DNA of 64,000 bases from Ylistrum balloti (GCF_031769215.1 NW_026782326.1:779432-843431), one strand, 5' to 3'; numbered from the stretch's first letter, positions 16,013 to 62,488 are shown. The notes: generated from the letters alone by a model not told the origin. Program-made: numbers and translations.

Positions 16013-17023
16013 TTAGAAATTAATCACAAGAACAAGTATCACCAGTAAGTGCATACTTTACTTAATTGTCTTCACTAGTTTCGCCTCCGGTCGAGGCTTC
16101 ATCAGGACAATTTTTTACACATTTCAGCCCTCTGAAGTAGTTTTTTCGGGGTTCAGAATTAATTGTGATGTATTACATAAATGGACAATAATACAAGGGC
16201 ATATATACCAAAAAGTTGACGTTATGTTAGCTAGATTATAGTGTTAACACAGTTCAAAACAAATCATTAAAGTCCAACATAAATAAAAAAGAGTTTGTTG
16301 TCTATCATATGCTGGTCTTTATTGGTGTTAATTTAGGCATACAGTGACATCAGACACTGAAACATAGGCCAGCTTCTTATAGTCCACTACTGCTTCAGTT
16401 AATTCTGTACTACTGATGGTTCTGATGGATGTGTGGTCTGAAAATGAGTCACTCAACAACAGGTCTTCTTTCAATAAGTCAAAAGGGCAACTCTCTTCAA
16501 TTGGAGCGGGTTCTGGGTTGACTTCTTTTGTGTGCGGCCCCGGGTGATTCCTCCCCTTGGTTGATACCATCCTGAACTTAGCCTTTTCCAGTTGGTGTTT
16601 GGTTAGCATTTCTAACAGCCTTTCCCATTGATCAGGTATAGCTGCTTCATTCCAATCATCATCTTTGAAGACTGCGGGTTCAATACTATAGAATGGGTGT
16701 TTTTCTTTAAGGTGGTGATGGTAGCAATCTCTCCTTCCGAAGGTACATTTGTAAATCTTACACTGGAACCTAGTGTTAGAGTGCATGCTATGTATCCTAC
16801 TAACATGTCTCCATAATGAACTTAAGTAAGCAAGTCTCTTACTGCATAAGATGCATGGCATCTTGATTTGCCCTGCATCCTGTCTAAGGTGCTTAGCAAG
16901 TGTGGTCTTGGTCTTGGGCATATCTAAGAGATTATATTCATGCCCCATGGTTTCTGTGTGCATACAATTAAGTAAAGCACCCACTTACTGATGACACTTG
17001 TTCTTGTTTCAATTAATTTCTAA
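16013..17023. mobile_element. TIR-bounded ~1 kb cassette (nonautonomous DNA-transposon/MITE-like) carrying a C2H2 ORF
   Basis: 16013-16070 (ttagaaattaatcacaagaacaagtatcaccagtaagtgcatactttacttaattgt) is the reverse complement (~85% id, one 5-bp indel) of 16963-17023 (acaattaagtaaagcacccacttactgatgacacttgttcttgtttcaattaatttctaa); termini TTAGAAATTAAT...ATTAATTTCTAA. Confidence 0.55.
16328..16948 (-). CDS. intronless small C2H2 zinc-finger protein (206 aa from ATG; CILCSKRLAYLSSLWRHVSRIH and CKIYKCTFGRRDCYHHHLKEKH fingers)
   Basis: first ATG in strong Kozak context aaaccATGg (16948-16946); ORF-track start at 16984 is GTG; stop TAA 16330-16328 followed within 10 nt by AATAAA on minus strand (~16321-16316); CX2CX12HX4H spacing seen directly. 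Confidence 0.5.
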   Translation of the reverse strand: MGHEYNLLDMPKTKTTLAKHLRQDAGQIKMPCILCSKRLAYLSSLWRHVSRIHSMHSNTRFQCKIYKCTFGRRDCYHHHLKEKHPFYSIEPAVFKDDDWNEAAIPDQWERLLEMLTKHQLEKAKFRMVSTKGRNHPGPHTKEVNPEPAPIEESCPFDLLKEDLLLSDSFSDHTSIRTISSTELTEAVVDYKKLAYVSVSDVTVCLN

Positions 17024-17941: not shown

Positions 17942-20900
17942 TTAAATTTTCTTACCTGTTCCTGATGATCTGATCTCTTTCTTCTCTTCTTCACCATACT
18001 TTCTCCATTTTTTTATTTTGTCTGAAAGGCCTTGATCAGTTTTCCTTCTTGTACTAGCCTTATTTTTACTTTTCCAAAGATTGCAATGATAATTTTTTCT
18101 GCTGTGTTCATCATATCTGGACTTAATTTCATGGTCTTTTCCAAAACCACTTAAACCTTCGCCAGTGTTTCCATCTTCCTTTTGTTCTCTTTTTCTCTGA
18201 TTTCTTGGACTCAAACTTCTGCTGAAACTCCCCTGCCTGCCTCGACTCAAACTCCTGCTGAACTTCCTCCGATAACCTCGACTCAGACTTCTGCTGAAAC
18301 TCCTCGGCCTACCTCGACTCAAACTTCTGCTGCAACTCCTATGCCTACCTCGACTCAAACTTCTGCTGAACTTCCTACGATAACCGCGATTCAGACTTCT
18401 TCTGAAACTCCTCCGCCTACCTCGACTCAGACTTCTGCTGAAACTCCTCCGCCTACCTCGACTCAGATGTCTGCTGAACTTCCTCTGCCTGTCTCGACTC
18501 AAACTTCTGCTGAAACTTCTCCGCCTGCCTCGACTCAAACTTCTTCTGAAACTTCTCCGCCTGCCTCGACTTAGACTTCTGATGAAACTTCTCTGCCGGT
18601 CTCGACTCAAACTTCTGCTGAAACTTCTTCGCCTGCCTCGACTCAGACTTCTGCTGAAACTCCTCCGCCTACCTCGACTCAGACGTCTGCTGAACTTCCT
18701 CTGCCTGCCTCGACTCAAACTTCTGCTGAAACTTCTCCGCCTGCCTCGACTCAAACTTCTGCTGAAACTTCTCCGCCTGCCTCGACTTAGACTTCTGATG
18801 AAACTTCTCTGCCAGTCTCGACTCAAACTTCTGCTGAAACTTCTCCGCCTGCCTCGACTCAAACTTCTGCTGAAACTTCTCCGCCTGCCTCGACTCAAAC
18901 TTCTGCTGAAACTTCTCCGCCTGCCTCGACTTAGACTTCTGATGAAACTTCTCTGCCGGTCTCGACTCAAACTTCTGCTGAAACTTCTCCGCCTGCCTCG
19001 ACTTAGTCTTCTGATGAAACTTCTCTGCCTATCTCTACTTCTGCTTCGACTTCTACCGCCACCACCACCACTACCTTCGGCTATATGCATCGTTCCATCA
19101 ATAGACTTCAATGACCTTAACATTTCTTCACTTTTTTCAACACGACCCTTGTCATTCATAATGCTTAATTCAGAATACTTTCTTTGTGGCTGTAAAGGCA
19201 GGGCCTTTTGTGTTAAACTTGATGGTCTGGTGTGACTTTCTGTCCTTATATTTGTCTTTGGGTCATATATTGCATAATCCATGTTTATATTTTGCAAGTA
19301 TGTAGATGCTGCTGTCTGACACTTATTTGAAAAAGGATCAACTTTAAATTCACTAACAATAGGGACATCTCTAAAACCAACATTATCTCTTGCATCCTTA
19401 AAACCATCACCATGACCACCTCTGCCTCCCCTGAAACCATCACCATGACCACCTCTGCCTCCCCTAAAACCATCACCATGACCACCTCTGCCTCCCCTAA
19501 AACCATCACTTTGACCACCTCTGCCTCCCCTAAAACCATCACTTTGACCACCTCTGCCTCCCCTAAAACCATCACTTTGACCACCTCTGCCTCCCCTAAA
19601 ACCATCACCATGACCACCTCTGCCTCCCCTAAAACCATCACCATGACCACTTCTGCCTCCCCTGAAACCATCACTTTGACCACCTCTGCCTCCCCTAAAA
19701 CCATCACCATGACCACCTCTGCCTCCCCTAAAACCATCATTGTGACCACATCTGCCTCCCCTAAAACCATCACTTTGACCACCTCTGCCTCTCCTAAAAC
19801 CATCACCAATACCACCTCCATCTCTCTTGAAACCATCAATGATGCTTCTAGTTGTACCATCATCCTCAGGTTCATTTTGTTTATCCATTGGTAGGGTTTG
19901 GGCTGCAAAAGAAAAACCTTGACTAGTACTGCTTCTTTGAGGTACTTGTTTCACAGTCCCAAATCCAAAACCTTGCCTTGGTACATCTCTTTGTGCTGTT
20001 GACAGTGCTGCTCCAAAAGAAAACCCTTGTCTGGTACTGCTGCTTGGAGACATTTGTTTCACAGTCCCAATGTCAGAATGTTGACTTGATTCTTGAATTT
20101 GAGCTGCTTGCGGAGGACCTCCAAAGAGAAACCATTCTCTTTGAATGTTGTTGGAAGCCATTTGATTCATAGCCCCAAAGTTGAAAGCTTGTGATGGTAT
20201 GTTATGTGGCAATTTCTCTGTTGAAACAGGTAGATTGTTCAATGATGGCTGCATTAGGCGTTTTTGTTGAGACAGGTCTTTATTGAACAGAGATAAAGGG
20301 GCAGATGTACTAGACAACACTTCTAGTTGAGAACTTTGTGAGGCGGGTTTGAAAAAATTTGAAGCTTTTGGCGAAAATCCTGCAGAGGCTGGTGAATAGG
20401 CTGGAGAGGTTGGTGAATAGGATGTGGTGGTTGGTGAATAGGATGTAGTGGCTGGTGTGGCTGGTGAATAGGCTGGGGTTGTTGGTGAATAGGCTGGAGA
20501 GGTTGGTGTATAGGCTGGGGTGGCTGGTGTGGCTGGTGTATAGGCTGGAGAGGTTGGTGTATAGGCTGGGGTGGCTGGTGTGGCTGGTGAATAGGACGGG
20601 ATGGCCTGTGAATTATCCTGAGATGATGCAAACATGTCAGATATTTCAGAAGCTAACTCGAGGAAACCTGGCTCTTCAGTACCTAACTCAATTTCCATAT
20701 CTTCATCTAGATATCTTGAAATTTGAAATTCTTCACAGCTTGCATTAAATTGATCTGAACGTTGTGGTGAAGGGGGCTGTGTTATCTTTCCTCTATCATG
20801 TTGAACATATTTTGTTTCGGTCATAATATATGCAAAGTTTTCCATTGAATCATCTTTTGCTTTATCTCCATCTAAGATATTACTGTTCACCTCATTATCA

Positions 20901-22126
20901 TGATTATCATAATCAACTGCAGGTGCAGATTTTCTGGCAGCTTTTGTTGGCAACTCCTTCCTTCCTTCACTGACCTCCTCACTGTCATCATCTTCAGAAG
21001 ATTCTTCAGAGGGTAAAGAAATAGATCTATCAACTGCAGGTGCAGATTTTCTGGCAGCTTTTGTTGCCAACTGCTTCCTTGGAGCTCCCTTTCCCCCTGT
21101 TGCCCTTCGACCGTTGGCAAAAGATTTCGTCTTACATTTTAGTGACTTTTCATTTTCTTCCTCCTCATCACTGACCTCCTCACTGTCATCATCTTCAGAA
21201 GATTCTTCAGAGGGTAAAGAAATAGATCTATCAACTGCAGGTGCAAATTTTCTGGCAGCTTTTGTTGCCAACCGCTTCCTTGGAGCTCCCTTTCCCCCTG
21301 TTGCCCTTCGACCGTAGGCAGAAGATTTCGTCTTACATTTTAGTGACTTTTCATTTTCTTCCTCCTCATCACTGACCTCCTCACTGTCATCATCTTCAGA
21401 AGATTCTTCAGAGGGTAAAGAAATAGATCTATCAACTGCAGGTGCAAATTTTCTGGCAGCTTTTGTTGCCAACTGCTTCCTTGGAGCTCCCTTTCCCCCT
21501 GTTGCCCTTCGACCGTTGGCAAAAGATTTCGTCTTACATTTTAGTGACTTTTCATTTTCTTCCTCCTCATCACTGACCTCCTCACTGTCATCATCTTCAG
21601 AAGATTCTTCAGAGGGTAAAGAAATAGATCTATCAACTGCAGGTGCAAATTTTCTGGCAGCTTTTGTTGCCAACCGCTTCCTTGGAGCTCCCTTTCCCCC
21701 TGTTGCCCTTCGACCGTAGGCAGAAGATTTCGTCTTACATTTTAGTGACTTTTCATTTTCTTCCTCCTCATCACTGACCTCCTCACTGTCATCATCTTCA
21801 GAAGATTCTTCAGAGGGTAAAGAAATAGATCTATCAACTGCAGGTGCAGATTTTCTGGCAGCTTTTGTTGCCAACCGCTTCCTTGGAGCTCCCTTTCCCC
21901 CTCTTGCCCTTCGACCGTTGGCAGAAGATTTCGTCTTACATTTTAGTGACTTTTCATTTTCTTCCTCCTCATCACTGACCTCCTCACTGACCTCCTCACT
22001 GTCATCATCTTCAGAAGATTCTTCAGAGGGTAAAGAAATAGATCTGGCAGATTTTGTTGTCAACTGCTCCCTTGGAACACGTCCTGCTGATTTCAGATGT
22101 TGTTTTTGCTGCTGCTGCTGAATGTC
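17942..22126 (-). CDS. giant internal/terminal coding exon (~1394 codons) of a low-complexity modular protein (NOLC1/Nopp140-like acidic-basic repeats + CTD-like SPxY + FG + RGG + RS arrays)
   Basis: acceptor ctatttttcag|GACATTCAG (AG at 22128-22127), phase 0; uninterrupted ORF to TAA at 17944-17942; ORF-track M at 22063 is a TTG; a consensus donor ACAG|gtaaga also exists at 17955-17954 just before the stop. Confidence 0.7.
18211..19040 (-). repeat. coding 36-bp (12-aa) tandem repeat x ~23: [12 protein letters not shown] (RS/SR-domain-like)
   Basis: ..[39 protein letters not shown].. ; antisense frames give L/K and T/S/P pseudo-ORFs. Confidence 0.85.
19390..19860 (-). repeat. coding 33-bp (11-aa) tandem repeat x ~15: GFRGGRGG(H/Q)(G/S)D (RGG-box-like)
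   Basis: direct DNA periodicity ccatcaccatgaccacctctgcctcccctaaaa; protein [28 protein letters not shown]... Confidence 0.85.
20330..20600 (-). repeat. coding SP(A/T)Y(S/T)P(A/T)TPA heptad-like repeats (RNA Pol II CTD-like)
   Basis: ..[70 protein letters not shown].. Confidence 0.8.
20880..22040 (-). repeat. coding 201-bp (67-aa) tandem repeat x ~6, 402-bp higher-order: [37 protein letters not shown](Y/N)[13 protein letters not shown](R/Q)LATKAARK(F/S)APAVDR
   Basis: identical 67-aa antisense ORFs at 21114-21317 and 21516-21719 show period; alternating acidic-Ser and basic blocks as in Nopp140/treacle. Confidence 0.85.
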
Positions 22127-27798: not shown

Positions 27799-27945
27799 CT
27801 TTTCTCGGAGGTCATAGTTGGCATCAGATTGAAGACATGGCTTGTAATCCAGAATGGAGGTGTAGACTCTTTTGGCTTCCATCTGGGAGAAACTTTCTGC
27901 TATCAGGCCTTTCCTCAACAGCTCCTCCACAATTTCTTTTGGTTC
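27799..27945 (-). CDS. PARP4-like: PARP4-like exon EPKEIVEELLRKGLIAESFSQMEAKRVYTSILDYKPCLQSDANYDLREK
   Basis: acceptor ttttgatttag| (27947-27946), donor AAG|gtaaaaaagg (27798-27797). Confidence 0.55.
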
Positions 27946-28189
27946 CTAAATCAAAATGAAGCAAACAAATATATGATATCTGTGCTACGCCCTGCTGCTT
28001 AACATATGTAATACCAGGATAAAACTACACAAAACAAGAGATCCCAGACGAATCTTGGCGCTGACCATAGTTTAATGTTTATATGCTCTTTGAATGTTGG
28101 ATCTTTTCCCTTCTTTTCTCTTTTCTTTTCTTTTGCTCTGAATGATAAGATACTTGAACATTCCTTGGCAGAAATAGTGGAGATAATCT

Positions 28190-29100
28190 GTACATGCCAA
28201 ATCCCAAATGGCCGTCTGAAAGCCATTTTGTTTCTTCTTATCAGTCCCAAAATGAAACAAGCACAAGGAGAGACCAAAGGGAACCTACGCATGAAATTTG
28301 AGAGATATCCATTCAGTATTTCTTAAGAAAGAGAAATAACAATGTTTACTAGGCAAAATCCAAGATAGCCATTTTGTTTCTTTGATCAGTCCCAAATTCA
28401 AACAGACATAACTAGGGACCTAAAGGAACCCTCTACAAAAAATTCAAGAAAGATCTATAGAGTATATAAGTCAAAATCTAAGATGGTCGCATGTGGGCCA
28501 TTTTGTTTTTTCTGATCAGTACCAAAGTCAAACAGGCAAAACTAGGGCCTAAAGGGAACCTACATACAAAATTTAAGAAAGAACCATCCCATACTTCTCA
28601 AGAAACAGCAATAACAATCTTTCAAAGACAAAATCCCAGATGGCAGTCTGTTGGCCAAATTGTTCTTTTGATCAGACCCAAAATTAATTAAGCATAACTT
28701 GGGAGCAAAAGGAACCTACATATGAAATTCAAGAAAGATTCATCCAGTACTTCTCAAGAAATAGCAATAACAATATTTCAAAGACAAAACCCAAGATGGC
28801 CGCCGTTCAGCCATTTTGTTTTTCTGATCAGTCTCAAAATCAAATGTGCCCAACTAGAGGCCAAGAGGAACCTACAGATGAAATTTGAGAGAGATCCATC
28901 TCTCACCTTTCAAGAAATAGTAATAACAAACTTCATTGAAAATACCCATGATGACAGGCTGTTAGCCATTTTGTTTTTTTGATCAGGCCCAAAATCAAAT
29001 GTGCACAACTAGGGACCAAGAGAAACCTACATATGCAATTTGAGAAATATTCATCCAGCACTTCTCAAGACAAAACGATAACAAAAATTGTTTATGGATC
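28190..29100. repeat. intronic tandem array of ~160-bp units (..aagatggccgcc...gccattttgttt.tt.tgatcag.cccaaa.tcaaa...aact.gg..c.aa.g.aacctac..a.gaaatt..agaaag..tccat...ac.tctcaagaaa.agcaataacaa..tttc) x ~5.5
   Basis: direct periodicity; generates false short ORFs on both strands. Confidence 0.8.
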
Positions 29101-29206
29101 AATGGAAGGATGGAAGGATGGACGACAGATGATGGACCACGTACGCAGAGCAATTTGAATAGCCCACTATCTGCAGGAAGAATCACAAGGTAGTAAGCTG
29201 ACTTAC

Positions 29207-29314
29207 TTTTTCATCAAATACATCAGGATTCTGCCAACCAACATATTCCAGAATGTCTACTGACTCCTCAGCCACAAGTTCATTAATGGAAGGTCCATCC
29301 TTTTTCTGCTCATT
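29207..29314 (-). CDS. PARP4-like: PARP4-like exon NEQKKDGPSINELVAEESVDILEYVGWQNPDVFDEK
   Basis: acceptor cgatttcag| (29316-29315), donor AAA|gtaagtcag (29206-29205); phase 0/0. Confidence 0.5.
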
Positions 29315-30480
29315 CTGAAATCGTAATGATAATTTCTTTGATAAAATATTCTCATTTTATATTTGTATTTCCCATGGTAAATATTATACATGTAGTATTT
29401 ATCTGAGTCAAACAAGGTGGACAAGTATGACTGACAATGAAATTCAAAATCAAATCTTAATTGGTTATTGCCACACCTGATCATATGAAAAGTCAGATAC
29501 CTTAATTTCTGTATGTTATGACATAATGATTTGGTATTGTTTTTCAAATGAGTTTTTATTTTACCAGATAGTCATAACAAATTCATATAAGGAATAAGAA
29601 AACAGAAGAGCAGGTGTAATTTAATTACTGATAAAAACCACTTTAGTACGCTTAACATTAAAAATATCAACTGATCACTGACGTATTAAAACAAAAACAA
29701 TGTTTTTTACATGTATCAGTGATCATGGCAGAACACTCGCTAATAACATTAGTCTTGATGACCTAGTGTTTTCTGTCGGAGAGCTGGGTATCAATCACGA
29801 GGGATAAGAAAATTCCGTCCCACTATGTTTAATTGTTGCTAGTAAAAGTAAACTGAGGAATCCTAGAAAAATTAGTTACAAATTCCAGTTTTAATAACTA
29901 ATGAGAGCACATGTCAGGAAATGATTATATTTATGTCCTTAAGTCATAACTTCATACATTAACAGTTACTGTCCTTATTTATAACCTTTGTAATAGTCAT
30001 TATCATTACACTGATAATGATAGTCTCTCTTGACTGTGTAGTGATATAATATTTTGAATGAAAGACTCGCATGTCATTTCATCACATGCTCGGATTGAAT
30101 TTTGTGTTTTGAAATGCCTTTGTGAAATAAAGCCTGTTTGAAATATGGTCCTTATATTTGCTGATCAATATCATTATGTGAAAGGTTTGATGATTTGTCA
30201 TTTCATTGCTGTGATATCGAAAGTCTTAAACAATAGGCTCTTCATAACGGTAGAAGTTAGGTCAGCAAACTGAAAATTTTTATTATTTTGTGTCTATAAA
30301 CTTTGGAATTGATTGAAATGAATTTGTATTTTAAAGAAACGAAGAAAAAAAGTAAATACAAGTGTGGAAGTTGAGGTTCTCTTACTAGTTTTATCTAGTG
30401 GTAGGGTGTACAGCTAGAGATTGTAGGGTTGCTAGTTTGAACCCCAGCAGTTGCACACAGGTAAATATTACTGTGATTAC

Positions 30481-30582
30481 CTGGTTTCTTTCTTCAATGG
30501 CCACGAAGCTGGTGTAGGGGGTCACAATGGAGAACTCAGTGCTCAGCTGAATAATAGTGTTCTTTCTCTCCTGTTTCAGCAC
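30481..30582 (-). CDS. PARP4-like: PARP4-like exon VLKQERKNTIIQLSTEFSIVTPYTSFVAIEERNQ
   Basis: (S/T)PYTSFVA(I/V)E is the hallmark C-terminal motif of the ITIH/VWA5A/PARP4 VIT-vWA family; acceptor ttttaactttcag| (30584-30583), donor CAG|gtaatcac (30480-30479). Confidence 0.75.
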
Positions 30583-30819
30583 CTGAAAGTTAAAATTAAT
30601 CTAAATTCTGAACTCATACCCCAGAATAACAGGGCCATGTCTCCGATAAACATACTGGAACAGCAGGGCTGTGTAATCCTGGTAAAATACTACCCGCAAA
30701 ATACCACTTGGCTACAGAGAACTTCTCTTCAGCTCCTAACAGAGGCATTGAAATAAATAATGACCTCTGTTACATTAGGTTACAACAGACTGTGTAAAAC
30801 TGTGGAAATATAGGGAATA

Positions 30820-31280
30820 CCAAATTACATAGGGGGCAGCAACTTATATAGGGGATACCAAATTACATAGGGGATACTAAATTACATAGGGGATACCAAA
30901 TTACAAAGGGGATGCCAAATTACATTGGGGAACCCAAATTACATAGGGGATACCAAATTACATAGGGGACAGCAACTTATATAGGGGATACCAAATTACA
31001 TAGGGGATACCAAATTACATAGGAGACACCAAATTACATAGGACCAAATTACATAGGGGATACCAACTTATATAGAGGATACCATATTACATAGGGGATA
31101 TCAAATTACATAGGGGATACCAAATTACATAGGAGACACCAAATTACAGATGGGATACCAACTTATATAGAGGATACCATATTACATAGGGGATATCAAA
31201 TTACATTGGAGATACCAAATTACATAGGGGATGCCAAATTACAATGGGGATTTACATTGGGGATACCAAATTACATAGAT
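30820..31280. repeat. 19-bp tandem repeat (ataggggataccaaattac) x ~24
   Basis: direct periodicity. Confidence 0.9.
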
Positions 31281-31449
31281 GAAATGAGCTGTTCCCTCTC
31301 TTCTTTTCACCTTGATAAGATTATTCACTTTAAATAGAAACCACAACATCATAATAAGGCTTTTAAAAGTTTTCCAATATTCCAAAGCTGTTTCAAGTTT
31401 ACATATAGTAAATCATCAATATTAATTCCAACACTAATGTGGTTATTGT

Positions 31450-32200
31450 AATTCATGACAAGAGGCTCAGGGGCCTACGTGGTCACCTGAGTGAACTCAC
31501 AAACAGAAACAATGGGAATGAACATGTAGTATAAAGAAGAGAAAATGAGAAATGCTGTTTGTACAGGGGCAGAATAGTTTTAAGCGTAGTTGTACAGGGG
31601 CAGAATAGTTTTAAGTGTAGTTGTACAGGGGCAGAATAGTTTTAAGTGTAGACCTTTCCATGAATAGTATTGGATTCTACCATCTTTATTATTGAGAAGA
31701 TTTTTGAAATTTCAGTCAACTTCATCCTATTTGGCCACACCCATCAGCCTCTGGGGGTCAGCCAGGGTCAATATGTGCATAACATCAAACTCTATACATA
31801 CTATCAATTTTAACCAAGTTTGATCTATTTCCAATTGAAAATTAAATTATCACAAACTTTACCACCTTCTTAGGGAGAAAGGTGAGACCCGGGGGTCAAG
31901 AAATTTACAAAAAAAAAGCACCTTAAAATCCTTCAATCCATGTAGAGTATTTAATTCTTCCATATCTGGGTATTCAGAAGCATATTTTTGAAATTTCAGT
32001 CAATTTGACCCTTTTGGCCCCTTAAGGGTGGGGACCACATGATTTACAATTTTGGTTAACCATTGGCTATGAAAAGGTTCTGCCAAGTTTCATTGAAATC
32101 GCTCTAGGGGTTTTCCAGAAAAAGTCATAATTGGAAATCTTTATTGACACAAAACAGACACCATTGGACAAAATGGTATAGCAATATAGATCCACATTAG
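31450..32200. repeat. interspersed repeat family A copy 3 (head acaagaggctcaggggcctacgtggtcacctgagtgaactcaca; internal 32-bp x3 gttgtacaggggcagaatagttttaagtgtag)
   Basis: collinear with 23990-24660 and 6590-7150. Confidence 0.75.
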
Positions 32201-32952
32201 AGACTTTGCCTCAGGTTAGCTGAAAATCAAAATGGACTTGTTGTTTTTCAATAAAGTAGTTATACATTAGAATATTTCCCCGTCCATATATGATATGATA
32301 TCCTTTATAACTGAAAGAAGTAAAAGCATAGCTTTTTTTGGGAAAAAAACTGTTTTCTTCTTATTTTTACATTAGAATTGAACTAGAAAGACTGAAAGAT
32401 AATATGCTTCAAGGCCACATATGGGTGTTCATATACTGAACCCTACATCTGCATTGTTTCATTAAAAAATATTCCTTATTCCACTATCTGTGAGAAGCCT
32501 GTTTCATTTAGGTCCAAATCCTTTCCCTTCCATAATTCTTGTCTTCTACAAACAATTTTCGAGTCTGCATAATTGTAAGCATTCAGACATTTGTTTGGTG
32601 ATATCAATTTCAAAGCTTTACTATAAGAAAAGATATCTGTGAATCTTAAGCTACTGTTTTTATAGTAGCCCATTTAAAGTTTTCTTTAATTAACTATTTA
32701 AATTACAACTAATCTTTAATCTCTGGACAAGCAAGAGCTGTCAATATTTGAAATGCAGTTACAAAACTCTATGTCCTGGTAGCTGTTACCTCATCGATGA
32801 TTCCTAAAGATCAATTAAAGAGAACAAGTTAATTGCCTGATACTTCTGCGGAAATTTGTCCTCTAAAATATTACCCTTTTGAAAGATCACAATTAATTCC
32901 TAAAAGTTTGCCATAATAATGATTCTAAGTGATTCTATGTCTGAGTACTTAC

Positions 32953-33033
32953 CCTCTGTTTTATCTTGTCTTCACTTAGGATACCATCCTCATAGTCACG
33001 GATCAGTGCACGAGCCGTCAGCTGATGCAGCAT
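32953..33033 (-). CDS. PARP4-like: PARP4-like exon MLHQLTARALIRDYEDGILSEDKIKQR
   Basis: acceptor gtgtcttcag| (33035-33034), donor AGG|gtaagtac (32952-32951); LAARALIRD(F/Y)EDG-type motif of VWA5A/ITIH C-terminal region. Confidence 0.6.
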
Positions 33034-33966
33034 CTGAAGACACAAACAACTAATCAGAGGTGAGACTTTATAAACATACTTCAGAGTTTGTTTCTTCTAA
33101 ATAATGGCAGCAAGAGTCATGATGTCAATCAACTTAGCACATGTAATTAGTGTATGGTGATAGGCTTTGTTATGTCATGTTAGATGAATTGACTGTATCA
33201 TTGTATTTTTTCATTTTGAAAATATTAACTCACAAGAGGCTGTGTGGGTTGCATTGCTCACCTGGTAATCAATGCTCTTCGCAAATACTTATGCTTGCAT
33301 TCAAAGCCTTGAGATGAAGTTGTTTGAAGGTTTTGACAAATTTGATCCTTTGTGGCCTCAGATATGGGGAAAGGTAATTTTTTTGTAAACTTCATGAGGG
33401 AACCATTTTATCCAAATTTCAAACCTTGTAATAAATAATTTTTTTGTAGAATTCAAAATACTTGACCCCTGTGACCTTGAATTTGGTATGGGTCACATTA
33501 ATAAATTTCAAAAAAGGAACCTATCAACCAAATATCAATAACAGTTTTATGCTTTTTCTAAGTAAGAAGTATCATTTGACAGTATTGACAAATTTGCCCC
33601 CTATGACCATGAATATGGGTCATAGTCAATTCTTTTGTAGAATTTATTGGGATTTAACAAAGGAACCTATCAACCAACTATCATGGTTCTAGGACTTTCA
33701 GTTAATCAGAAGAAGTTGTTGGAAGGTTTTTAAGATATTTGACCCCAGTGACCTGGAATATGAGTCAAAGTAATTTCTTTCCACAAATCCTGTTGGGCTA
33801 CATTCATGGCCAAAAATCTTTATTCTAGGCCTTTTGGTTATCAAACAAAAGGGAAAAGTTAACAGTGTACCACATCGTAAGGGCCAAGTGAGCTAAAAAG
33901 CACTGATGCTTTATTTGGGTGCTCTCAATCGCCAGAAAGATTATGTGTAGTGTTGACACTGCTTAC

Positions 33967-34047
33967 CTCCCCTTGTGTGATGTTAAGTTCAGTTGTTGCT
34001 ACCATGGTAGAAATCTCCATATTGTCAACTGTGGCTTTCAAGTAGGC
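33967..34047 (-). CDS. PARP4-like: PARP4-like exon AYLKATVDNMEISTMVATTELNITQGE
   Basis: acceptor ctgatttacag| (34049-34048), donor GAG|gtaagcag (33966-33965); phase 0/0; assignment to this gene by phase only. Confidence 0.45.
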
Positions 34048-35387
34048 CTGTAAATCAGATTGTATGGAATAATATAGAATTGGTTCAAAGTATAGACCAA
34101 ATTTTACGTCTCTGAAACAACATTCTATAATCTAATTTTGTTTATATTACAAGCTGATTGTTGTTTTACACAAACATATCTTTTTCCATTGAAACCCCCA
34201 TAATTTGGGATGTTGTGTTTATGCATTTCTGGGTTAAAACTGGAAAAAATGTCTTGAAAATTAAAAGAGTAACACTTATTTAACACCATTAGCCTTTCTC
34301 CCTCCAAAAGTTGACCAATATAACAAATTTAAGGACAATAACCCTTTATTCACCAGCTCTTGCTTTCACTGTTTGAGTTGATCACCATTAATAACATAAA
34401 AGTGACATACTGTTAACATATTTAACTTGGCGTAATGGAATTTTAACCCATCACTACTAAACATTTTGCAAATTAGTGCAGTCATGAATTTGAGCATCAA
34501 CAATGAAAGTTACAGCAACTGCAATTTAATCCCCTAACCAGTAAAATATATTTACAAACTGTGAATAAATTTTCACCTGAGTACAGTTCGGTACAAATCC
34601 GTATACGACCTGTCGTGACCCCGAGAACAGACTTGGGATGTGATTAGGGGCCTGTAGGGGTTGATCAGGTGTGTCCATGTGTTGTTGCCACTCAACCTTT
34701 ACACAAGAAATACCTGGACAACATGCCCTCTGAACTTGTGAGGTCATCTAAAAAGGTGAAAATCATCAACAGATCACAGTAACCATTTCCAGGTAAGAAG
34801 ATATTGCTGGAGTAAAGCTTAACACAATGTTTTCTTGTGAAAATTCTGCAATTTTCTGGCACAATTTCATTCGAGATTTGTCAGTGTTGGAACCAATGTA
34901 AAAATAACTAGGATTTTACAGGAAACAGACATGTACAACATTACAATGATATTTCCTTAATTTCACTTACCACCAATACTATACACCCACTCTATGTACC
35001 TCTAAACTTCCAAACTAACATTTACAATTTCTGCTTAGCAACGTGTTCACAGCGACCTAATTATGTGACATGTACACAAGACTATATAATTCTGCACTAG
35101 AATCGGTTTTCAATATCACTGTCTTAATTCATGATGATTGAATAATTATGAAATTGTTTCAATAACTGAATTCCCAAAAACACTTAAACAGATTGTAAAA
35201 TATAAAAGCTCCAATTTTCTTGTTTTTAACAATTTCATCACATGCTAAAAAGTTAAACTTGTCTTGGACAAAAGGAGGTCACACAGTAAAGAATTATTGG
35301 TGTTCATAGAGAAAATGAAAAAAAAGAATCTAATCTGAATCTAATACAATAAGATTTATTGGTATTGAAATGAGATGATTTACTCAC

Positions 35388-35487
35388 CCTCGCCTCCCAA
35401 ACAGAGCGTGTCTTGTAGTTGTAGTGGTAATAGGTACCACCTCCGCGTGATGCCAGGCGCCGCATCAAGTGGTGGTTCACATTTGTT
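35388..35487 (-). CDS. PARP4-like: PARP4-like exon (vWA end) (G)TNVNHHLMRRLASRGGGTYYHYNYKTRSVWEAR
   Basis: acceptor tttacttgaag| (35489-35488), donor AGG|gtgagtaa (35387-35386); phase 2 in, 0 out. Confidence 0.65.
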
Positions 35488-35723
35488 CTTCAAGTAAATA
35501 TTAGTATGAAAATTATGTTATAATCACACAAAACTCATTAACATATACATTAATATATAGCTAAGAATAATTATATTTAAATTTAATACAATGCAACTGT
35601 ATCCCACTTACACAATTATCATAAATGACAAAGTCAACATTTCATACACATTACTTATCAATTTCCATAGTTAATATTTACTTTTTTTAAAAATTTGCTT
35701 AAAAACAGGTTTTTTATATTTAC

Positions 35724-35911
35724 CCAACACCAATAGTGAAAATTCTATTTTTGGCATTTCCTTTTCTAACAGTTGACAACAGCACATCACTGTTGCTAAG
35801 GTAACCATCTGAGATGAGGAAGATACTCCTACTGCCCTCTGCTGGACTTAGAAGAAACAAGGACTCCACTGGATAATTGACATTGCTCCCTCCCATTTGT
35901 GGTTGTACACT
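35724..35911 (-). CDS. PARP4-like: PARP4-like exon (vWA) SVQPQMGGSNVNYPVESLFLLSPAEGSRSIFLISDGYLSNSDVLLSTVRKGNAKNRIFTIGVG
   Basis: IFLISDG ... RIFTIGVG = vWA beta4/beta5 signatures; acceptor tgtatttag| (35913-35912), donor GTTGG|gtaaat (35723-35722). Confidence 0.8.
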
Positions 35912-36239
35912 CTAAATACAAAACACAAATAAGATGTAATTCTATCATTGGTATATATGATAAGTATATGATATATAGCTAATTGTGTTTTTCTGCTCTG
36001 CCCTTGGAACTTCTTTGACCTTGACCATTAGAAATTATTCAACACAGCGCACATCTAAGGACTGACAAAACATCAACTCATATGCTTAGCATTTCATGTG
36101 AAATTGTTTGAAAAGATGCACTAAAAATTCTAAAATGTCACTCATGGAATCCAAGATTGAAAGTTATGCCTATAATTAGTCATTTGAAATCTTTCTTTAG
36201 AGTATAAATTCTATGTTGACTTTCTGTATAAAATATTAC

Positions 36240-36676
36240 AGGATTAAATTATGAGAATTTGTATAAAATCTTACAATTATGAATTTCATGACTTTCTGGG
36301 TAATTTTTTACCTGTATAAATTTTGTGACTTTTGTATAAAATTTTACCTGTGTAAATTCCGTGACTTTCTGAGTAATTTTTACCTGTATAAATTCTGTGA
36401 CTTTTTGTTTAAAATTTTACCTGTATAAATTCTGTGACTTTTGTATGAAATTTTACCTGTATAAATTCTGTGGCTTTTGTATGAAATTTTACCTGTATAA
36501 ATTCTGTGACTTTTTGTATGAAATTTTACCTGTATAAATTCTGTGACTTTTTGTATGAAATTTTACCTGTATAAATTCTGTGGCTTTTTGTTTAAAATTT
36601 TACCTGTATAAATTCTGTGACTTTTGTATGAAATTTTACCTGTATAAATTCTGTGGCTTTTTGTATGAAATTTTAC
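36240..36676. repeat. 37-bp tandem repeat x ~12 that reiterates the exon-end + GT donor of the 36677-36817 vWA exon (unit on minus: caaaaag(c/t)cacagaatttatacag|gtaaaatttcata)
   Basis: array is contiguous with the exon/intron boundary at 36677/36676; each unit contains a copy of CAG|GTAAAAT. Confidence 0.85.
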
Positions 36677-36817
36677 CTGTATAAATTCTGTGGCTTTTTG
36701 TACAGCCTGTTTGGTCTTTTTCTGAGGTGCAGGGAAGAGCTCTGTGTAAGATGTTCCAAAACTAAGCACATTGATAAGAGCTTTCTCTGGAAGTTTCTCT
36801 ACAGCTAGGAGGAATAA
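36677..36817 (-). CDS. PARP4-like: PARP4-like exon (vWA) LFLLAVEKLPEKALINVLSFGTSYTELFPAPQKKTKQAVQKATEFIQ
   Basis: acceptor ttaattcacag| (36819-36818; the nearer cctag acceptor would give an in-frame stop), donor CAG|gtaaaatttc (36676-36675); pattern L.LP..FN..GFGS typical of VWA5A/ITIH vWA. Confidence 0.75.
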
Positions 36818-37290
36818 CTGTGAATTAAATTATCATATATCATAACAAACACCAATTCTCCAAGCACAAACTATACTTCATTATCAAAGATTTTCACTCA
36901 ATATTTTGAACATTTTTAATTAATATTGAATTATATGAAATTTTACAATCATTTATTGCAGCATGGATATGTGGAGCTTAATGTAATTTTCTCATTATCA
37001 TTATACATCAAAATTGTTGAAACAGTAAGTGTCCAGTTTTGTTATGTGGGGTTATTGATGTATTTTAACCTACAAATTATTTGGCATAACTTCAAAAACT
37101 ACATCACAAAGCTGAAAGCTAAAATAATCCTTATCTGTAATATAATCATTCCAGTCTTTCTTATCAAAACTTTTGCCATAATTTATTTTTATCTGTTTGA
37201 ACACAAATTCTGACCTTTAATATAATTAATTTTAAAAATGTCAACTCATTTCAGTTTTGGAGTCTAATCTTGTATCTCCAAGGCACTGAC

Positions 37291-37410
37291 CTTTTTAGCA
37301 TCTCGAGTTGACTGTCCCTTCATAGAATTTGACATGTCCAACAAAAAAATGACCTCAGGGTCCTCTTCAAATTCTGCCTCAAATTCCGGGTAGAATGCCA
37401 ACATGCATGC
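37291..37410 (-). CDS. PARP4-like: PARP4-like exon (vWA start with MIDAS) ACMLAFYPEFEAEFEEDPEVIFLLDMSNSMKGQSTRDAKK
   Basis: DxSxS MIDAS motif (DMSNS) preceded by hydrophobic beta-strand VIFLL; acceptor tttaaccag| (37412-37411), donor AAG|gtcagt (37290-37289). Confidence 0.8.
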
Positions 37411-38087
37411 CTGGTTAAAAAGCAAAACAATCTAAACAAAAGAATTTTGTGAATTAATATTCCCCACTGACACAGTCTCACTAATATGCACCCATACCCA
37501 TATGAACCCATACCCAAAGTATGGAGCTCCAGTGCCTAGTATTAGAGGAGGTAGACCCCAGACAAACTTTTTCATTGCTGTAGGTCAAAGTTTCAAATGT
37601 AGTTAAGTGACCAACTTTTGATATTCAACACACCACATTACCAGGATGAACAAATGCATCCAGCATGAAGTTCCAGTGATAAGTAGTGTAAGAAATAGAG
37701 ACTGGACAAGGTAGCTGCAGGATGGAAGGACAGACAAACAACTGAATCAAATTATGACATACTACTAGTTAACCATAACTTGCACCAGAGGACAAGAAGA
37801 GTACATGCATACTGAACAATTTTCTAATGTCAAATATGTTTATAGGTAGTTGATGATTTTTCCTATGGCATCGAAACAGATATGACTGGATGGGATAATC
37901 TTTTTATTTTTAAAAAGGACATACACCTAAGCATAGTTAACATAAATTTTTGATTTCAGTATTTTAGCTCAGTTCATGCCAAGTAGAAAATTATCTTATG
38001 GAACAAAACATTCAAGATAATGTAAATGTCTCAGATAGACTTGGTCCAGTGCAGGTTTTCCCCTGATAATTTAAGCATGTGACATAC

Positions 38088-38222
38088 CTGAGTGGCCCTG
38101 CTAGGGTGTCTCTCCACCCACATGCGGGGAACATGAATTTCAGACAGACTGACCAGCAAAATAAATCCATCATCCAGTCTGGCATTCTTTGGAAGCTCCA
38201 CCACAGCCTTTGTTGCTGTTTT
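38088..38222 (-). CDS. PARP4-like: PARP4-like exon (VIT end) KTATKAVVELPKNARLDDGFILLVSLSEIHVPRMWVERHPSRATQ
   Basis: acceptor ttttatag| (38224-38223), donor CAG|gtatgtcac (38087-38086). Confidence 0.7.
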
Positions 38223-38415
38223 CTATAAAATAGCGAACAAAACAAAACGAAGGTTTCACAATTACATCTAGTACATGGTATTCTTATAGCTTAACCGGGG
38301 TAGACAAAATTGCTTGGTTTAGTCAATTTATAACGAAAAAAAATAGTAGCCATAACTATAAAAGTATCTATAATAACACCTGCAAAACACCTGATAAAAA
38401 ATAAGTATAACATAC

Positions 38416-38538
38416 CTTATATTTAACTTGATGTGTAGGGGACATCACACTGCGAATATCAAAAGGCATCTCCACAGAAACCTGCAGTGATAGGGATGAT
38501 CTGTCACCATCCTGGATCCTCAGCATGTCAAGGTCAAA
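38416..38538 (-). CDS. PARP4-like: PARP4-like exon (VIT) FDLDMLRIQDGDRSSLSLQVSVEMPFDIRSVMSPTHQVKYK
   Basis: acceptor ttttactcaaaag| (38540-38539), donor AAG|gtatgt (38415-38414); phase 0/0. Confidence 0.65.
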
Positions 38539-38810
38539 CTTTTGAGTAAAAGAAACAGTATCAATAGTTTTGAAACCTTGAGTTAATAAAACTTATCTCA
38601 GACTGAAGTACTCATGCCAAAATCAAAGCCCAGGTCTTGTCTGTAATAGACTAATAGCTAAACCATATATCAATAAAATAAGTGTTGGGGATATACAGGT
38701 ATCATTTAATACATACATGCTAAAATTCATGAAAAGTGACTTAAAATGTAAGATGCAGAATTAAGACAAGAAACTATAATAATGTGTAACCAGACAAGGC
38801 AATGACTTAC

Positions 38811-38976
38811 CTGAGTTGCCTGTGCCAGTGCTGTGTCCTTGACCCAGGGAGCAACTGAGGAAGGCACTCTGAAAGCAATACTTTCCCCCTCTACCTGCAG
38901 TTCTGTGATGTAGGTAATCTTGATCAGTACATCAGATTTTGGTGGCAGGTTACCAACACTGACTGTAAAAACATCC
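38811..38976 (-). CDS. PARP4-like: PARP4-like exon (VIT) DVFTVSVGNLPPK[frameshift]SDVLIKITYITELQVEGESIAFRVPSSVAPWVKDTALAQATQ
   Basis: acceptor ttgtccaacag| (38978-38977), donor CAG|gtaagtc (38810-38809); 166 nt, not a multiple of 3: A5 run 38947-38951 (plus ttttt) shifts frame between conserved FTVSVGNLPP and KSDVLIKITYITEL; alternative acceptor tgtttttacag| at 38964 gives an in-frame 153-nt exon. Confidence 0.55.
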
Positions 38977-38999
38977 TGTTGGACAAAAAGTCAATGTCA

Positions 39000-41900
39000 T
39001 GAAGACAAGGAGTCAATTTACTGCAGGCAAGAACTCAATCTACTGAAGACAAGGAGTCATTCTACTGAAGGCAAGAACTCAATCTACTGAAGACAAGGAG
39101 TCATTCTACTGAAGACAAGGAGTCATTCTAGTGAAGACAAGGAGTCATTCTACTGAAGACAAGGAGTCAATTTACTGCAGGCAAGAACTCAATCTACTGA
39201 AGACAAGGAGTCATTCTACTGCAGGCAAGAACTCAATCTACTGAAGACAAGGAGTCATTCTACTGCAGGCAAGAACTCAATCTACTGAAGACAAGGAGTC
39301 ATTCTACTGCAGGCAAGAACTCAATCTACTGAAGACAAGGAGTCATTCCACTGCAGGCAAGAACTCAATCTACTGAAGACAAGGAGTCATTCTACTGAAG
39401 ACAAGGAGTCATTCTAGTGAAGACAAGGAGTCATTCTACTGAAGACAAGGAGGCAATCTACTGAAGACAAGGAGTCATTCTACTGAAGACAAGGAGGCAA
39501 TCTACTGAAGACAAGGAGTCATTCTACTGCAGGCAAGAACTCAATCTACTGAAGACAAGGAGTCATTCCACTGCAGGCAAGAACTCAATCTACTGAAGAC
39601 AAGGAGTCATTCTACTGCAGGCAAGAACTCAATCTACTGAAGACAAGGAGTCATTCTACTGCAGGCAAGAAATCAATCTACTGAAGACAAGGAGTCATTC
39701 TACTGAAGACAAGGAGTCATTCTACTGCAGGCAAGAACTCAATCTACTGAAGACAAGGAGTCATTCCACTGCAGGCAAGAACTCAATCTACTGAAGACAA
39801 GGAGTCAATCTACTGAAGACAAGGAGTCATTCTACTGCAGGCAAGAACTCAATCTCATGAAGACAAGGAGTCATTCTACTGCAGGCAAGAACTCAATCTC
39901 ATGAAGACAAGGAGTCATTCTACTGCAGGCAAGAACTCAATCTACTGAAGACAAGGAGTCATTCTACTGCAGGCAAAAACTCAATCTACTGAAGACAAGG
40001 AGTCATTCTACTGAAGACAAGGAGTCATTCTAGTGAAGACAAGGAGTCATTCTACTGAAGACAAGGAGGCAATCTACTGAAGACAAGGAGTCATTCTACT
40101 GAAGACAAGGAGGCAATCTACTGAAGACAAGGAGTCATTCTACTGCAGGCAAGAACTCAATCTACTGAAGACAAGGAGTCATTCCACTGCAATAAAGAAC
40201 TCAATCTACTGAAGACAAGGAGTCATTCTACTGAAGACAAGGAGTCATTCTACTGCAGGCAAGACCTCAATCTACTGCAGGCAAGGAGTCATTCTACTGA
40301 AGACAAGGAGTCATTCTACTGCAGGCAAGGAGTCATTCTACTGCAGGCAAGAACTCAATCTACTGAAGACAAGGAGTCATTCTACTGCAGGCAAGAACTC
40401 AATCTACTGAAGACAAGGAGTCATTCTACTGAAGACAAGGAGTCATTCTAGTGAAGACAAGGAGTCATTCTACTGAAGACAAGGAGTCATTCTACTGCAG
40501 GCAAGAACTCAGTCTACTGAAGACAAGGAGTCATTCTACTGCAGGCAAGAACTCAATCTACTGAAGACAAGGAGTCATTCTACTGCAGGCAAGAACTCAA
40601 TCTACTGAAGACAAGGAGTCATTCTACTGAAGACAAGGAGTCATTCTACTGAAGACAAGGAGTCATTCTACTGCAGGCAAGAACTCAATCTACTGAAGAC
40701 AAGGAGTCATTCCACTGCAGGCAAGAACTCAATCTACTGAAGACAAGGAGTCATTCTACTGAAGACAAGGAGTCATTCTACTGCAGGCAAGAACTCAATC
40801 TACTGCAGGCAAGGAGTCATTCTACTGAAGACAAGGAGTCATTCTACTGCAGGCAAGAACTCAATCTACTGAAGACAAGGAGTCATTCTACTGAAGACAA
40901 TGAGTCATTCTACTGAAGACAAGGAGTCATTCTAGTGAAGACAAGGAGGCATTCTACTGAAGACAAGGAGGCAATCTACTGAAGACAAGGAGTCATTCTA
41001 CTGAAGACAAGGAGTCATTCTAGTGAAGACAAGGAGGCAATCTACTGAAGACAAGGAGTCATTCTACTGCAGGCAAGAACTCAATCTACTGCAGACAAGG
41101 AGTCAATCTACTGAAGACAAGGAGTCATTCTACTGCAGGCAAGAACACAATCTACTGAAGACAAGGAGTCATTCTACTGCAGGCAAGAACTCAATCTACT
41201 GAAGACAAGGAGTCATTCTACTGCAGGCAAGAACTCAATCTACTGAAGACAAGGAGTCATTCTACTGCAGGCAAGAACTCAATCTACTGAAGACAAGGAG
41301 TCATTCTACTGCAGGCAAGAACTCAATCTACTGCAGGCAAGGAGTCATTCTACTGAAGACAAGGAGTCATTCTACTGCAGGCAAGAACTCAATCTACTGA
41401 AGACAAGGAGTCATTCTACTGAAGACAATGAGTCATTCTACTGAAGACAAGGAGTCATTCTAGTGAAGACAAGGAGTCATTCTACTGAAGACAAGGAGGC
41501 AATCTACTGAAGACAAGGAGTCATTCTACTGCAGGCAAGAACACAATCTACTGAAGACAAGGAGTCATTCTACTGCAGGCAAGAACTCAATCTACTGAAG
41601 ACAAGGAGTCATTCTACTGCAGGCAAGAACTCAATCTACTGAAGACAAGGAGTCATTCTACTGCAGGCAAGAACTCAATCTACTGAAGACAAGGAGTCAT
41701 TCTACTGCAGGCAAGAACTCAATCTACTGAAGACAAGGAGTCATTCTACTGCAGGCAAGAACTCAATCTACTGAAGACAAGGAGTCATTCTACTGCAGAC
41801 AAGAACTCAATCTACTGAAGACAAGGAGTCATTCTACTGAAGACAAGGAGGCAATCTACTGCAGGCAAGAACTCAATCTACTGAAGACAAGGAGTCATTC

Positions 41901-57530: not shown

Positions 57531-57539
57531 GACCTAATT

Positions 57540-62410: not shown

Positions 62411-62488
62411 GGGCTACTTGACGACGCGTTGGCTGTAGACACGCGCGAAGATAGTTTCGCTTACCGCGTCACATCTGCATGTAGGAAA

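Follow-up and report, generated by a model that had tools for sequence, protein, structure and literature searches.

A very large exon, predicted to be disordered and composed of tandem histone H3-tail-like, CTD-like, FG, RGG and RS modules, in a probable PARP4-like (vault PARP) gene of Ylistrum balloti

The 64,000-nucleotide stretch of Ylistrum balloti DNA analyzed here in its full length (GCF_031769215.1 NW_026782326.1:779432-843431; hereafter, the window) carries on its minus strand a very large internal exon (22126..17956; 4171 nt, approximately 1390 codons) that very probably belongs to a PARP4-like (vault PARP) gene. Its translation comprises modules resembling the histone H3 tail and the C-terminal domain (CTD) of RNA polymerase II, together with phenylalanine-glycine (FG), arginine-glycine-glycine (RGG) and arginine-serine (RS) motifs. 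The exon is by far the largest open reading frame (ORF) of the window, and its frame is free of stops from 22162 to the stop codon at 17944-17942. It is entered in phase 0 at the acceptor ttgctatttttcag/GAC (tttttcag/GAC), which has a polypyrimidine tract and a CAG, sits at 22128-22127 and makes 22126 the first exon base, and it is left in phase 1 at the consensus donor aacag/gtaaga, the GT of which (17955-17954) lies four codons ahead of the stop, with 17956 as the last base. The earliest in-frame methionine is residue 428, so that 427 codons contain none; the large exon therefore cannot be a self-contained gene and must be internal.

Upstream, the same strand has stop-to-stop ORFs that resembled exons for VIT, vWA and ubiquitin-like domains; when these ORFs were roughly concatenated and used as the query of a homologue search, PARP4 of molluscs, cnidarians and vertebrates was retrieved (best E 1e-138). 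When the PARP4 proteins of Solemya, Lottia, Saccostrea and Mytilus were aligned to the window by tblastn, collinear minus-strand exons were obtained from 53594 to 25755, and the Pfam families BRCT, PARP_reg, PARP, VIT, VWA_3 and ubiquitin exceeded their curated cut-offs on a rough spliced model. These tblastn and Pfam matches place the exons for the BRCT, PARP regulatory and catalytic, VIT and vWA domains and the ITIH-like remainder at 27805..53594 (minus strand). Immediately upstream of the large exon, a ubiquitin-like domain is encoded by two minus-strand exons (25933-25751 and 25400-25336); it matches Pfam ubiquitin with an E value of 5e-16 on the rough spliced model, and a Mytilus coruscus model (P0060) aligns at 25336-25933. 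The second of these exons ends in phase 0 at AVYLVLALRGGLSSEKK/gtgagt (..ALRGGLSSEKK/gtgagt), and since the large exon is entered in phase 0, a direct splice to 22126 fits.

Downstream, two minus-strand exons resemble the MVP-interacting C-terminus of PARP4; they are located at 10429-10330 (GHYWELTPELCQTLGVSYIKITNLLKLQGLYSLG) and 9532-9180 (..ENMIATYLVFLKIIQ...ELELGHTLHTATWNLFCALNEKSF, followed by a stop), and their splice sites and phases are mutually consistent. The C-terminus of a fish PARP4 matches these exons by tblastn (E 0.001), and among all six-frame ORFs they rank at the top against a profile of four vertebrate sequences (E 0.0045). After splicing, they score 24.5 bits with the alignment GYWELT..EL...FLK.KGI.SLG...VATLLV. 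No Pfam model gave a hit here, and the match to the domain is weak but specific. Because PARP4-like exons are collinear on both sides, the large exon would lie inside the gene, with the enzyme/ITIH-like body on one side and the vault-docking domain on the other. Direct splicing of it to the exon at 10429 was rejected: the large exon is left in phase 1 and the exon at 10429 is entered in phase 0, so that at least one further exon is required between them. A candidate bridging exon (16568..16671, minus strand; VFKDDDWNEAAIPDQWERLLEMLTKHQLEKAKFRM) has phase 1 in and phase 0 out, and its WERLLEML resembles the W[NT][EK][LI]F[EQ][LM]Q found ahead of GYWE in vertebrate proteins; the donor of the candidate, GTATCA, is weak. 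The candidate lies inside a 218-aa ORF (16328-16984, minus strand) that starts at an ATG of its own in good context, contains two C2H2-like Cys/His patterns and is followed shortly after its stop by an AATAAA; this ORF may represent a nested gene, an alternative 3′ exon or, in part, a PARP4 exon.

Several features of the large exon indicate that it is coding. Approximately 476 non-repetitive codons are open in its frame only, in DNA of 35-46% GC, and a chance origin of the open frame is excluded (approximately 1e-13 by our own estimate). The periods of all of its arrays are multiples of three, whereas those of most other satellites in the window are not. In the RS array, which is the oldest of the arrays, the differences between copies show a synonymous bias (proportion of synonymous differences, pS, 0.29; of non-synonymous differences, pN, 0.11; pN/pS 0.38), and the variable columns are distributed as 3/8/10 over the three codon positions. 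The two youngest arrays, those of the 67-aa and RGG units, are too uniform to be informative on selection. A Pfam search of the exon gave nothing at E <=1 except for a chance match to MgtE_N, and Rfam and tRNA scans of the window gave no matches. AlphaFold2 (AF2), run on the single sequence of exon residues 380-1040, returned a mean predicted local distance difference test score of 36.6, with 0 residues at or above 70 and two helices of 6-11 residues; the residues VILMFWC make up 16% of the exon product, which is predicted to be intrinsically disordered.

Read in the 5′ to 3′ direction of the minus strand, the exon begins with a Q run that is followed by a degenerate, apparently older H3-tail-like copy of 22 aa (22040..22105). 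This copy aligns locally with H3(1-40) at 10 identities over 23 aligned columns, with a score (53) approximately equal to the best shuffle score of the full unit (52), and the match is thus weak by itself. It is followed by an array of acidic Ser-rich blocks and H3-tail mimics (20915..22042), consisting of five full units of 67-71 aa and a truncated sixth, in which Tandem Repeats Finder (TRF) identified a 201-bp (67-aa) unit in 5.3 copies with 97% matches. The copies alternate in the order A-B-A-B and differ in 4 variable nucleotide columns, an alternation that suggests that the latest amplification step copied a 402-bp double unit. Unique segment A (20594..20911), identified from the translation and containing EEFQISRYL, has the sole predicted short helix in its half of the exon (aa 489-499; AF2), and an 18-aa motif within it resembles, by eye, DEDFELDITTDKSPAFLK of P0115 and P0125, the two related proteins described below. 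The CTD-like heptads (20369..20593) form nine Y[ST]P units, of which five are canonical 7-mers (YSPTSPA, YTPTSPA) and the remaining four are 10-mers; this array is less regular at the DNA level (66-93%). The Q/S/N-rich stretch (19835..20368) carries the motifs FNFG, GFSFG, GFGFG and GFSFA, contains a 108-bp TRF unit (2.1 copies, 74%) and matches the GFSFG repeats of P0125 at a BLASTP E value of 0.075. The RGG array (19397..19837) has approximately 13 units of 11 aa, DGFRGGRGG(HG/QS), with a TRF period of 33 bp (12.7 copies, 93%). Unique segment B (19073..19396), also read from the translation, includes MHIAEG and has only a 6-residue helix by AF2; no homologue of it was found. The RS/basic array (18209..19069) follows with approximately 23 units of 12 aa (TRF period 36 bp, 22.9 copies, 85%), and the exon closes with a unique basic tail rich in Lys, Arg and Glu (17957..18208), which ends ..EIRSSGT/G at the donor.

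The original prediction for this DNA, made from the sequence alone, had already described a single large coding exon with a long open frame and all of these arrays, which were found at the coordinates that it had given; the strand is the minus strand, and the exon ends at the splice donor (17956) and not at the stop. Its six 67-aa repeats correspond to five full units, with the sixth truncated and a degenerate copy added at the exon start, and its RGG array is present in approximately 13 rather than approximately fifteen units. The approximately twenty-three RS units, the CTD-like heptads and the Q/S/N-rich stretch with GFSFG/GFGFG motifs were all recovered. Its claim that the repeats are nearly perfect in their DNA is borne out by the 201-bp and 33-bp arrays, to a lesser degree by the RS array, and not by the heptads. 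Several of the low-complexity arrays do look recently amplified, as had been proposed, and the occurrence of all these modules in one polypeptide is indeed unusual.

Each 67-aa unit consists of an acidic Ser-rich block and, after it, a copy of the N-terminal tail of H3. A phmmer search of the PDB with one unit returned histone H3 only, with unit residues 35-67 aligned to H3 residues ~6-33 (E 6e-6). By Smith-Waterman alignment, the five copies are identical to H3 R8-A31 at 20-22 of 25 positions, with a score of 100 as compared with a maximum of 52 in 2000 shuffles, and KTKSSA, located upstream in the unit, recalls RTKQTA (H3 residues 2-7). In three of the five full copies, PRKR replaces PRKQ. 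No histone fold follows the tail; the H3 matches end at approximately residue 31-37, where the next acidic-Ser block begins, and no Pfam Histone hit was obtained. The heptads matched the RPB1 CTD in a phmmer search of the PDB (E 1.2e-47). Despite the RS-type array, neither an RRM nor another SR-protein domain was detected by Pfam in the exon or the gene, and no FG-nucleoporin anchoring (Nup) domain was detected in the exon, which has only approximately five FG motifs. The assignment of the 67-aa repeats to the Nopp140/treacle type by the original prediction is not upheld, as Pfam gave no LisH, SRP40_C or treacle match and the basic half of the unit corresponds to the H3 tail, an identity that this prediction had not recognized; the splice donor just ahead of the stop and the conservation of the module set in other species had likewise escaped it. 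Its view of the product as a condensate-forming RNA-processing or nucleolar protein likewise gives way to a location inside a PARP4-like gene, between the ubiquitin-like and MVP-domain exons.

To find relatives of the exon, residues 230-512 (two H3-type units and segment A) were run as the query of an exhaustive HMMER search against 1.84 billion representative proteins. Most of the 14 hits were duplicated H3 gene models, and two, P0115 (894 aa) and P0125 (954 aa), were true relatives. Word-indexed homologue searches found nothing at E <=1e-5 with the whole exon, in which low-complexity candidates probably swamped the search, and nothing at E <=0.01 with the four unique segments concatenated. 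The loci of P0115 and P0125 (L001-L003) are derived from two eukaryotic assemblies (ENA ERZ25074796 ctg34905/ctg34536 and ERZ25069865 ctg4164), in which the related exons occupy L001 10001-12685 (P0115) and L003 10001-12865 (P0125). The two proteins are 37% identical (E 7e-65), and one large ORF encodes each of them, entered in phase 0 at a polypyrimidine-CAG acceptor and left in phase 1 at a donor, ACAG/GTA, just before the stop; the exons end in ..PPST/G and ..LIT/G, as compared with ..GT/G here, in the same phase. Their module order begins with many GFSFG repeats, followed by DEDFELDITTDKSPAFLK and a near-complete H3 tail (residues 2-38) with an acidic patch, after which two more degenerate copies of the tail occur (..AARKSAPVAEHITVPSGSES). 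The next module is an 11-aa RGG-type motif in P0115 and RGRGGKGGKGLGKGGQKR, an H4-tail mimic, in P0125, and the final module consists of SPSYSPTSPSYS-type CTD heptads. The relatives share modules with the large exon but differ in order, copy number and most of the sequence, and both have far more GFSFG repeats. Because the module set and the intron phases are shared by exons of two other species, these exons constitute a conserved family rather than a one-off satellite. Pfam searches of P0115 and P0125, as well as of the 218-aa ORF and the 461-aa ORF described below, gave nothing meaningful.

No nucleotide similarity remains between the window and the relatives' loci over the exon. Nevertheless, all three species have the same 17-residue H3 core, the codons of which show 8-11 synonymous differences and no non-synonymous one, which points either to purifying selection on the peptide or to repeated refreshment from canonical H3 genes, the latter being possible because H3-derived fragments adjoin the related exons. 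Under either option, the H3 identity is being maintained. The RGRGGKGGKGLGKGGQKR segment of P0125 has residues 1-21 of the histone H4 tail as its best PDB matches (E 0.022); since this mimic occupies the position of the RGG array in the present exon and in P0115, the RGG array may descend from an H4-tail copy. Two haplotig copies, P0128 and P0115, are 95% identical and differ by a 37-aa indel in the FG repeats, which is direct evidence of copy-number variation of an array within a species. In L001, a ubiquitin-like C-terminal exon (..HLVLRLRGGPSGP, ..LVLRLRGG) lies 9.4 kb upstream of the related exon on the same strand. The motif LRLRGG is also present in P0060, P0036 and P0038, and in the window the intact ..LRGG end of the ubiquitin-like domain adjoins the large exon; if it were cut as in a ubiquitin fusion, the enzyme body would be parted from the mimic linker and the vault-docking domain.

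In M. coruscus P0060, the PARP4 mid-region and ubiquitin-like domain lead into a tail that is Q-rich, contains FG motifs and has a 'PRKSAP'-acidic part, with 'GPRKSAPIVEDIHIPDTSSEEESS'. By eye, this tail and the large exon share the short motifs RKSAP.V..I..P followed by an acidic run, GFSFG and a Q run. Homology at the level of alignment is claimed for P0115 and P0125 and not for the M. coruscus tail. In the C-terminal half of PARP4 from Lates calcarifer (P0080), the disordered region contains a short CTD-like SPQYSPTSPSYSS, much like SPSYSPTSPSYS of P0125; CTD mimicry may predate molluscs, or the likeness may be a coincidence.

The related loci show some further features. Lys9 of the H3 mimic is replaced in both relatives, giving ARMS in P0115 (K9M-like) and ARYS in P0125, and the K27 context, ARKSAP, is exact. 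Loose H3 pieces are found near the related exons on the plus strand (L002 5893-6063, L001 2936-3250 and L003 6989-7423), namely a piece of H3 27-53 located 2.6 kb downstream of a related exon and GGTRTRQTARRSTGG-type pieces (H3 1-13) located upstream; these may be extra exons or remnants of the H3 fragments that seeded or refreshed the mimic. A glycine-arginine-rich ORF (GGRGGFGERGGFGD...GRGGGFGGRGK; L003 19066-19332, plus strand) is found on the strand of the P0125 exon, 6 kb beyond it in the downstream direction; it may belong to that gene as an additional exon, or a fibrillarin-like neighbor may start there. P0119 (941 aa; ENA contig of 7.6 kb), a GC-rich protein of another eukaryote, carries the complete H3 tail ahead of an acidic run, two more ..RKSAP.. 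motifs and, by eye only, a SET-domain C-terminal part, which implies that H3-tail-plus-acidic modules are not confined to PARP4-like genes. Two other candidates were not counted as evidence: P0127 (L004), a small H3-tail-plus-acidic fragment with an uninformative context, and P0126 (L005), in which an H3 tail and an acidic block are accompanied by a 'QQNFDGSFSF..' C-terminal domain that scores a negligible 1.6 bits against the PARP4 C-terminal profile.

Elsewhere in the window, a Glu/Lys-rich ORF of 461 aa (62387-63772, plus strand), which is probably a coiled coil and has no Pfam domain, is located upstream of the PARP4-like gene in divergent orientation, and its start (LLDDALAVDTREDSFAY...SIEEFQIKRYL) resembles segment A of the large exon (BLASTP E 0.01). 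The intron that splits the PARP4 VIT domain contains a 3.8-kb array of a 22-bp unit (39000-42797; TRF period 44, 86 copies), and arrays with the same 44-bp unit occur at 57536-60049 and 55413-56555. Downstream of the 3′ end of PARP4, a 33-bp array (4011-5446; 44 copies, 83%) can be read on the minus strand, free of stops, as repeats of ..NLTQSYDRFRLNL..; apart from a period divisible by three, nothing suggests that it is coding. Approximately twenty further tandem-repeat arrays are present in the window (35 TRF rows, several per array).

Unequal recombination or replication slippage would have enlarged each module of the large exon without breaking its frame, in a genome highly prone to minisatellites; the A-B-A-B order of the 67-aa units and the FG indel between the relative's haplotigs both fit unequal exchange. 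The resulting linker would join the ADP-ribosyltransferase body at one end and the vault-docking domain at the other. Tentatively, we propose that it may act as a multivalent mimic, or bait, for the readers, modifiers and transporters of H3, CTD, FG, RGG and RS tails, whether these originate from the host or from a pathogen. The bound proteins would be brought next to the catalytic domain of PARP4 and, via the C-terminal domain, into or onto the vault. Such a bait role would explain the fast evolution of the PARP4 linker. The joint proposal, i.e., that the exon encodes the disordered linker of a PARP4-like protein and that this linker works by tail mimicry, is on balance the account that we favor. 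A more specific version, which is doubtful, is that the vault-tethered copies of H3, H4, CTD, RS, RGG and FG motifs, as the regulatory tails of the host that are targeted most heavily, form an integrated-decoy array that captures pathogen effectors or host enzymes, readers and karyopherins, which would then be ADP-ribosylated or sequestered in the vault. Receptors of the importin-beta type bind H3 and H4 tails as well as RGG, RS and FG motifs. In view of older reports that connect vaults with nuclear pores (cited in PMC2964712), it could be speculated that this is a unifying theme.

A number of observations weigh against this interpretation. The inclusion of the large exon in a PARP4 mRNA is inferred from its position, splice sites and phases, its in-frame joining to the MVP-domain exons needs at least one more exon that is at present only a candidate, and the match of those exons to the vertebrate domain is weak, being 24.5 bits against a profile of four sequences. 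In the relatives, neither vWA nor MVP-domain exons were found in the 10-kb flanks of P0115 and P0125, and the link to PARP4 is accordingly partial; the M. coruscus tail does not match the large exon significantly by BLASTP. The youngest arrays show no sign of purifying selection, as all 4 variable nucleotide columns of the 67-aa array are non-synonymous and the pN/pS of the RGG array is approximately 1.4. The H3 mimicry is, moreover, imperfect, because ARKF (TCT to TTT) replaces ARKS in three of the five full copies and the K9/S10 region of the tail is degraded to GRRA in all of them. The bait mechanism itself is a conjecture, one that would fit the interface hypothesis published for the vertebrate exon.

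The main rival explanation is neutral: the arrays would be tolerated in-frame minisatellites that ran away in a permissive linker of PARP4, and their likeness to tails would be functionless, deriving from one captured H3 gene fragment and ordinary low-complexity drift. The window as a whole is rich in repeats, including the 3.8 kb of 22-bp units in a PARP4 intron, and the 201-bp and 33-bp arrays, which are 93-97% identical, are very young and have no synonymous excess. The change from ARKS to ARKF in three copies, the H3-derived DNA fragments near the relatives' exons, which fit the capture of H3 gene pieces, and the different copy numbers in the haplotigs P0128 and P0115 also count in its favor. 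However, neutral growth does not readily explain why the module set recurs in species in which no DNA similarity remains, why the H3 core is identical with only synonymous differences, or why the pN/pS of the RS array is 0.38. The H4-tail mimic that stands in place of the RGG module in one relative looks like selection for tail likeness, and the degenerate, older H3-like copy at the exon start shows that the module is not a single recent capture. The neutral explanation is regarded as unlikely. An alternative function, in which the tail copies serve as a cis-substrate or automodification domain, i.e., as substrates or pseudo-substrates of the ADP-ribosyltransferase activity of PARP4 itself or of the kinases and methyltransferases that regulate it, rather than as a bait for other proteins, is improbable. 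The exon has 19 Lys-Ser dipeptides, approximately three per H3-type unit, and its acidic-Ser blocks, RRRSF units and SP heptads are dense in consensus kinase sites. Lys-Ser is the preferred context of serine ADP-ribosylation by PARP1/HPF1, with H3S10 and H3S28 as the main sites; on the other hand, neither the use of HPF1 nor a targeting of serines is known for PARP4. Three of the five copies have lost S28 and all have lost K9/S10, and the FG motifs and CTD heptads would be left unexplained, which counts against such a role, whereas the modification of itself and of MVP that has been reported for PARP4 (background in PMC4038475) would count for it.

Two further readings concern the exon as a unit. 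Stand-alone proteins of RNA processing or the nucleolus that form condensates typically carry RGG, RS, FG and acidic-Ser blocks, and the 218-aa ORF just downstream, with its own ATG and AATAAA, shows that genes nested in a PARP4 intron are possible. It is nevertheless very improbable that the large exon is such a protein or nested gene, given its 427 codons without an in-frame Met, its frame bounded by a consensus acceptor and donor, phases that fit the neighboring PARP4 exon, a position that matches the known disordered exon of PARP4, and the absence of RRM, LisH, SRP40 or any other Pfam domain. That the sequence is a non-coding satellite or pseudo-exon open by chance is scarcely credible: although stop-free repeat units stay open in several frames, the approximately 476 non-repetitive codons are open solely in this frame, the array periods are all multiples of three, the RS array has a third-position bias, and the peptide has been conserved between species. 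Two other candidates that were considered, a sperm protamine-like precursor and a transposon or viral gene, were dropped in view of the PARP4 context.

The vault and the vault PARP have had no agreed function for decades, and the disordered exon of PARP4 is the one clear evolutionary signal in this system. Its recognizable motifs here suggest candidate partners, namely chromatin readers and writers, CTD kinases and binders, SRPK/CLK, PRMTs, karyopherins and those viral proteins that are aimed at any of these. If the decoy version of the bait proposal were true, it would provide a concrete function for the fast-evolving exon and for the vault particle; if the arrays are neutral, they represent a clean case of in-frame minisatellite growth and histone-gene fragment capture within a coding exon.

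The closest known system is PARP4 of vertebrates. In human PARP4, BRCT-WGR-HD-ART is followed by an ITIH-like region (VIT, vWA), by a disordered stretch and, at the C-terminus, by the domain that interacts with MVP (PMC10450202). Among vertebrates, the largest PARP4 exon specifies approximately 360 aa of disordered sequence; this region varies strongly in length and sequence, positive selection in the gene is concentrated solely on it, and it was proposed to be a host-pathogen interface that may recruit viral proteins to vaults or to ADP-ribosylation (Daugherty et al., 2014; PMC4038475). The large exon of the window is the positional counterpart of this hypervariable disordered exon, which it resembles in gene family, in its position between VIT/vWA and the MVP domain, in being one very large exon, in its predicted disorder and, apparently, in its high variability in length and sequence between species. 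By contrast, its approximately 1390 aa are about four times the length of the vertebrate region, the domain ahead of it is ubiquitin-like, terminates in LRGG and has no counterpart in vertebrate PARP4, and no tandem copies of H3-tail, CTD, FG, RGG or RS motifs have been described for the vertebrate exon. The literature search for PARP4 with histone mimicry yielded nothing relevant, and this composition was not found described.

Histone mimics are exemplified by ARSK of influenza NS1, ARKS of SARS-CoV-2 ORF8, ARKT of G9a and the K27M-like sequence of EZHIP. The present exon resembles them in the H3-tail sequence, including the ARKS(AP) context of K27/S28, and in its location in a disordered region of a non-histone protein, but the known mimics comprise 4-10 residues and are usually single, whereas here 25-37 residues are reproduced nearly exactly in five to six tandem copies in a host gene, alongside CTD mimics and, in one relative, H4-tail mimics. 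If this reading is true, the linker would be, to our knowledge, the longest and most multiplied endogenous histone mimic. The literature on histone mimicry includes, for example, PMC6028506 and 10.1101/585729. With the RPB1 CTD, the exon shares heptads of the form Y-S/T-P-T-S/T-P-A/S; it differs from the CTD in having only nine units, four of which are 10-mers, in the predominance of Ala at position 7, and in the absence of a polymerase body. A conceptual parallel may be found in the integrated decoys of plant nucleotide-binding leucine-rich repeat receptors, in which a defense protein carries copies of host targets and thereby traps pathogen effectors; those decoys are folded domains in receptors, whereas short linear motifs in a PARP would take their place here, and the immune role of PARP4 assumed in this comparison is extrapolated from evolutionary data on vertebrates. 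The known kind is the hypervariable disordered exon of PARP4, and what seems to be new is its composition, shared as a set by several invertebrate genomes, of tandem and near-exact H3 tails with CTD, RGG/H4, RS and FG modules following a ubiquitin-like domain.

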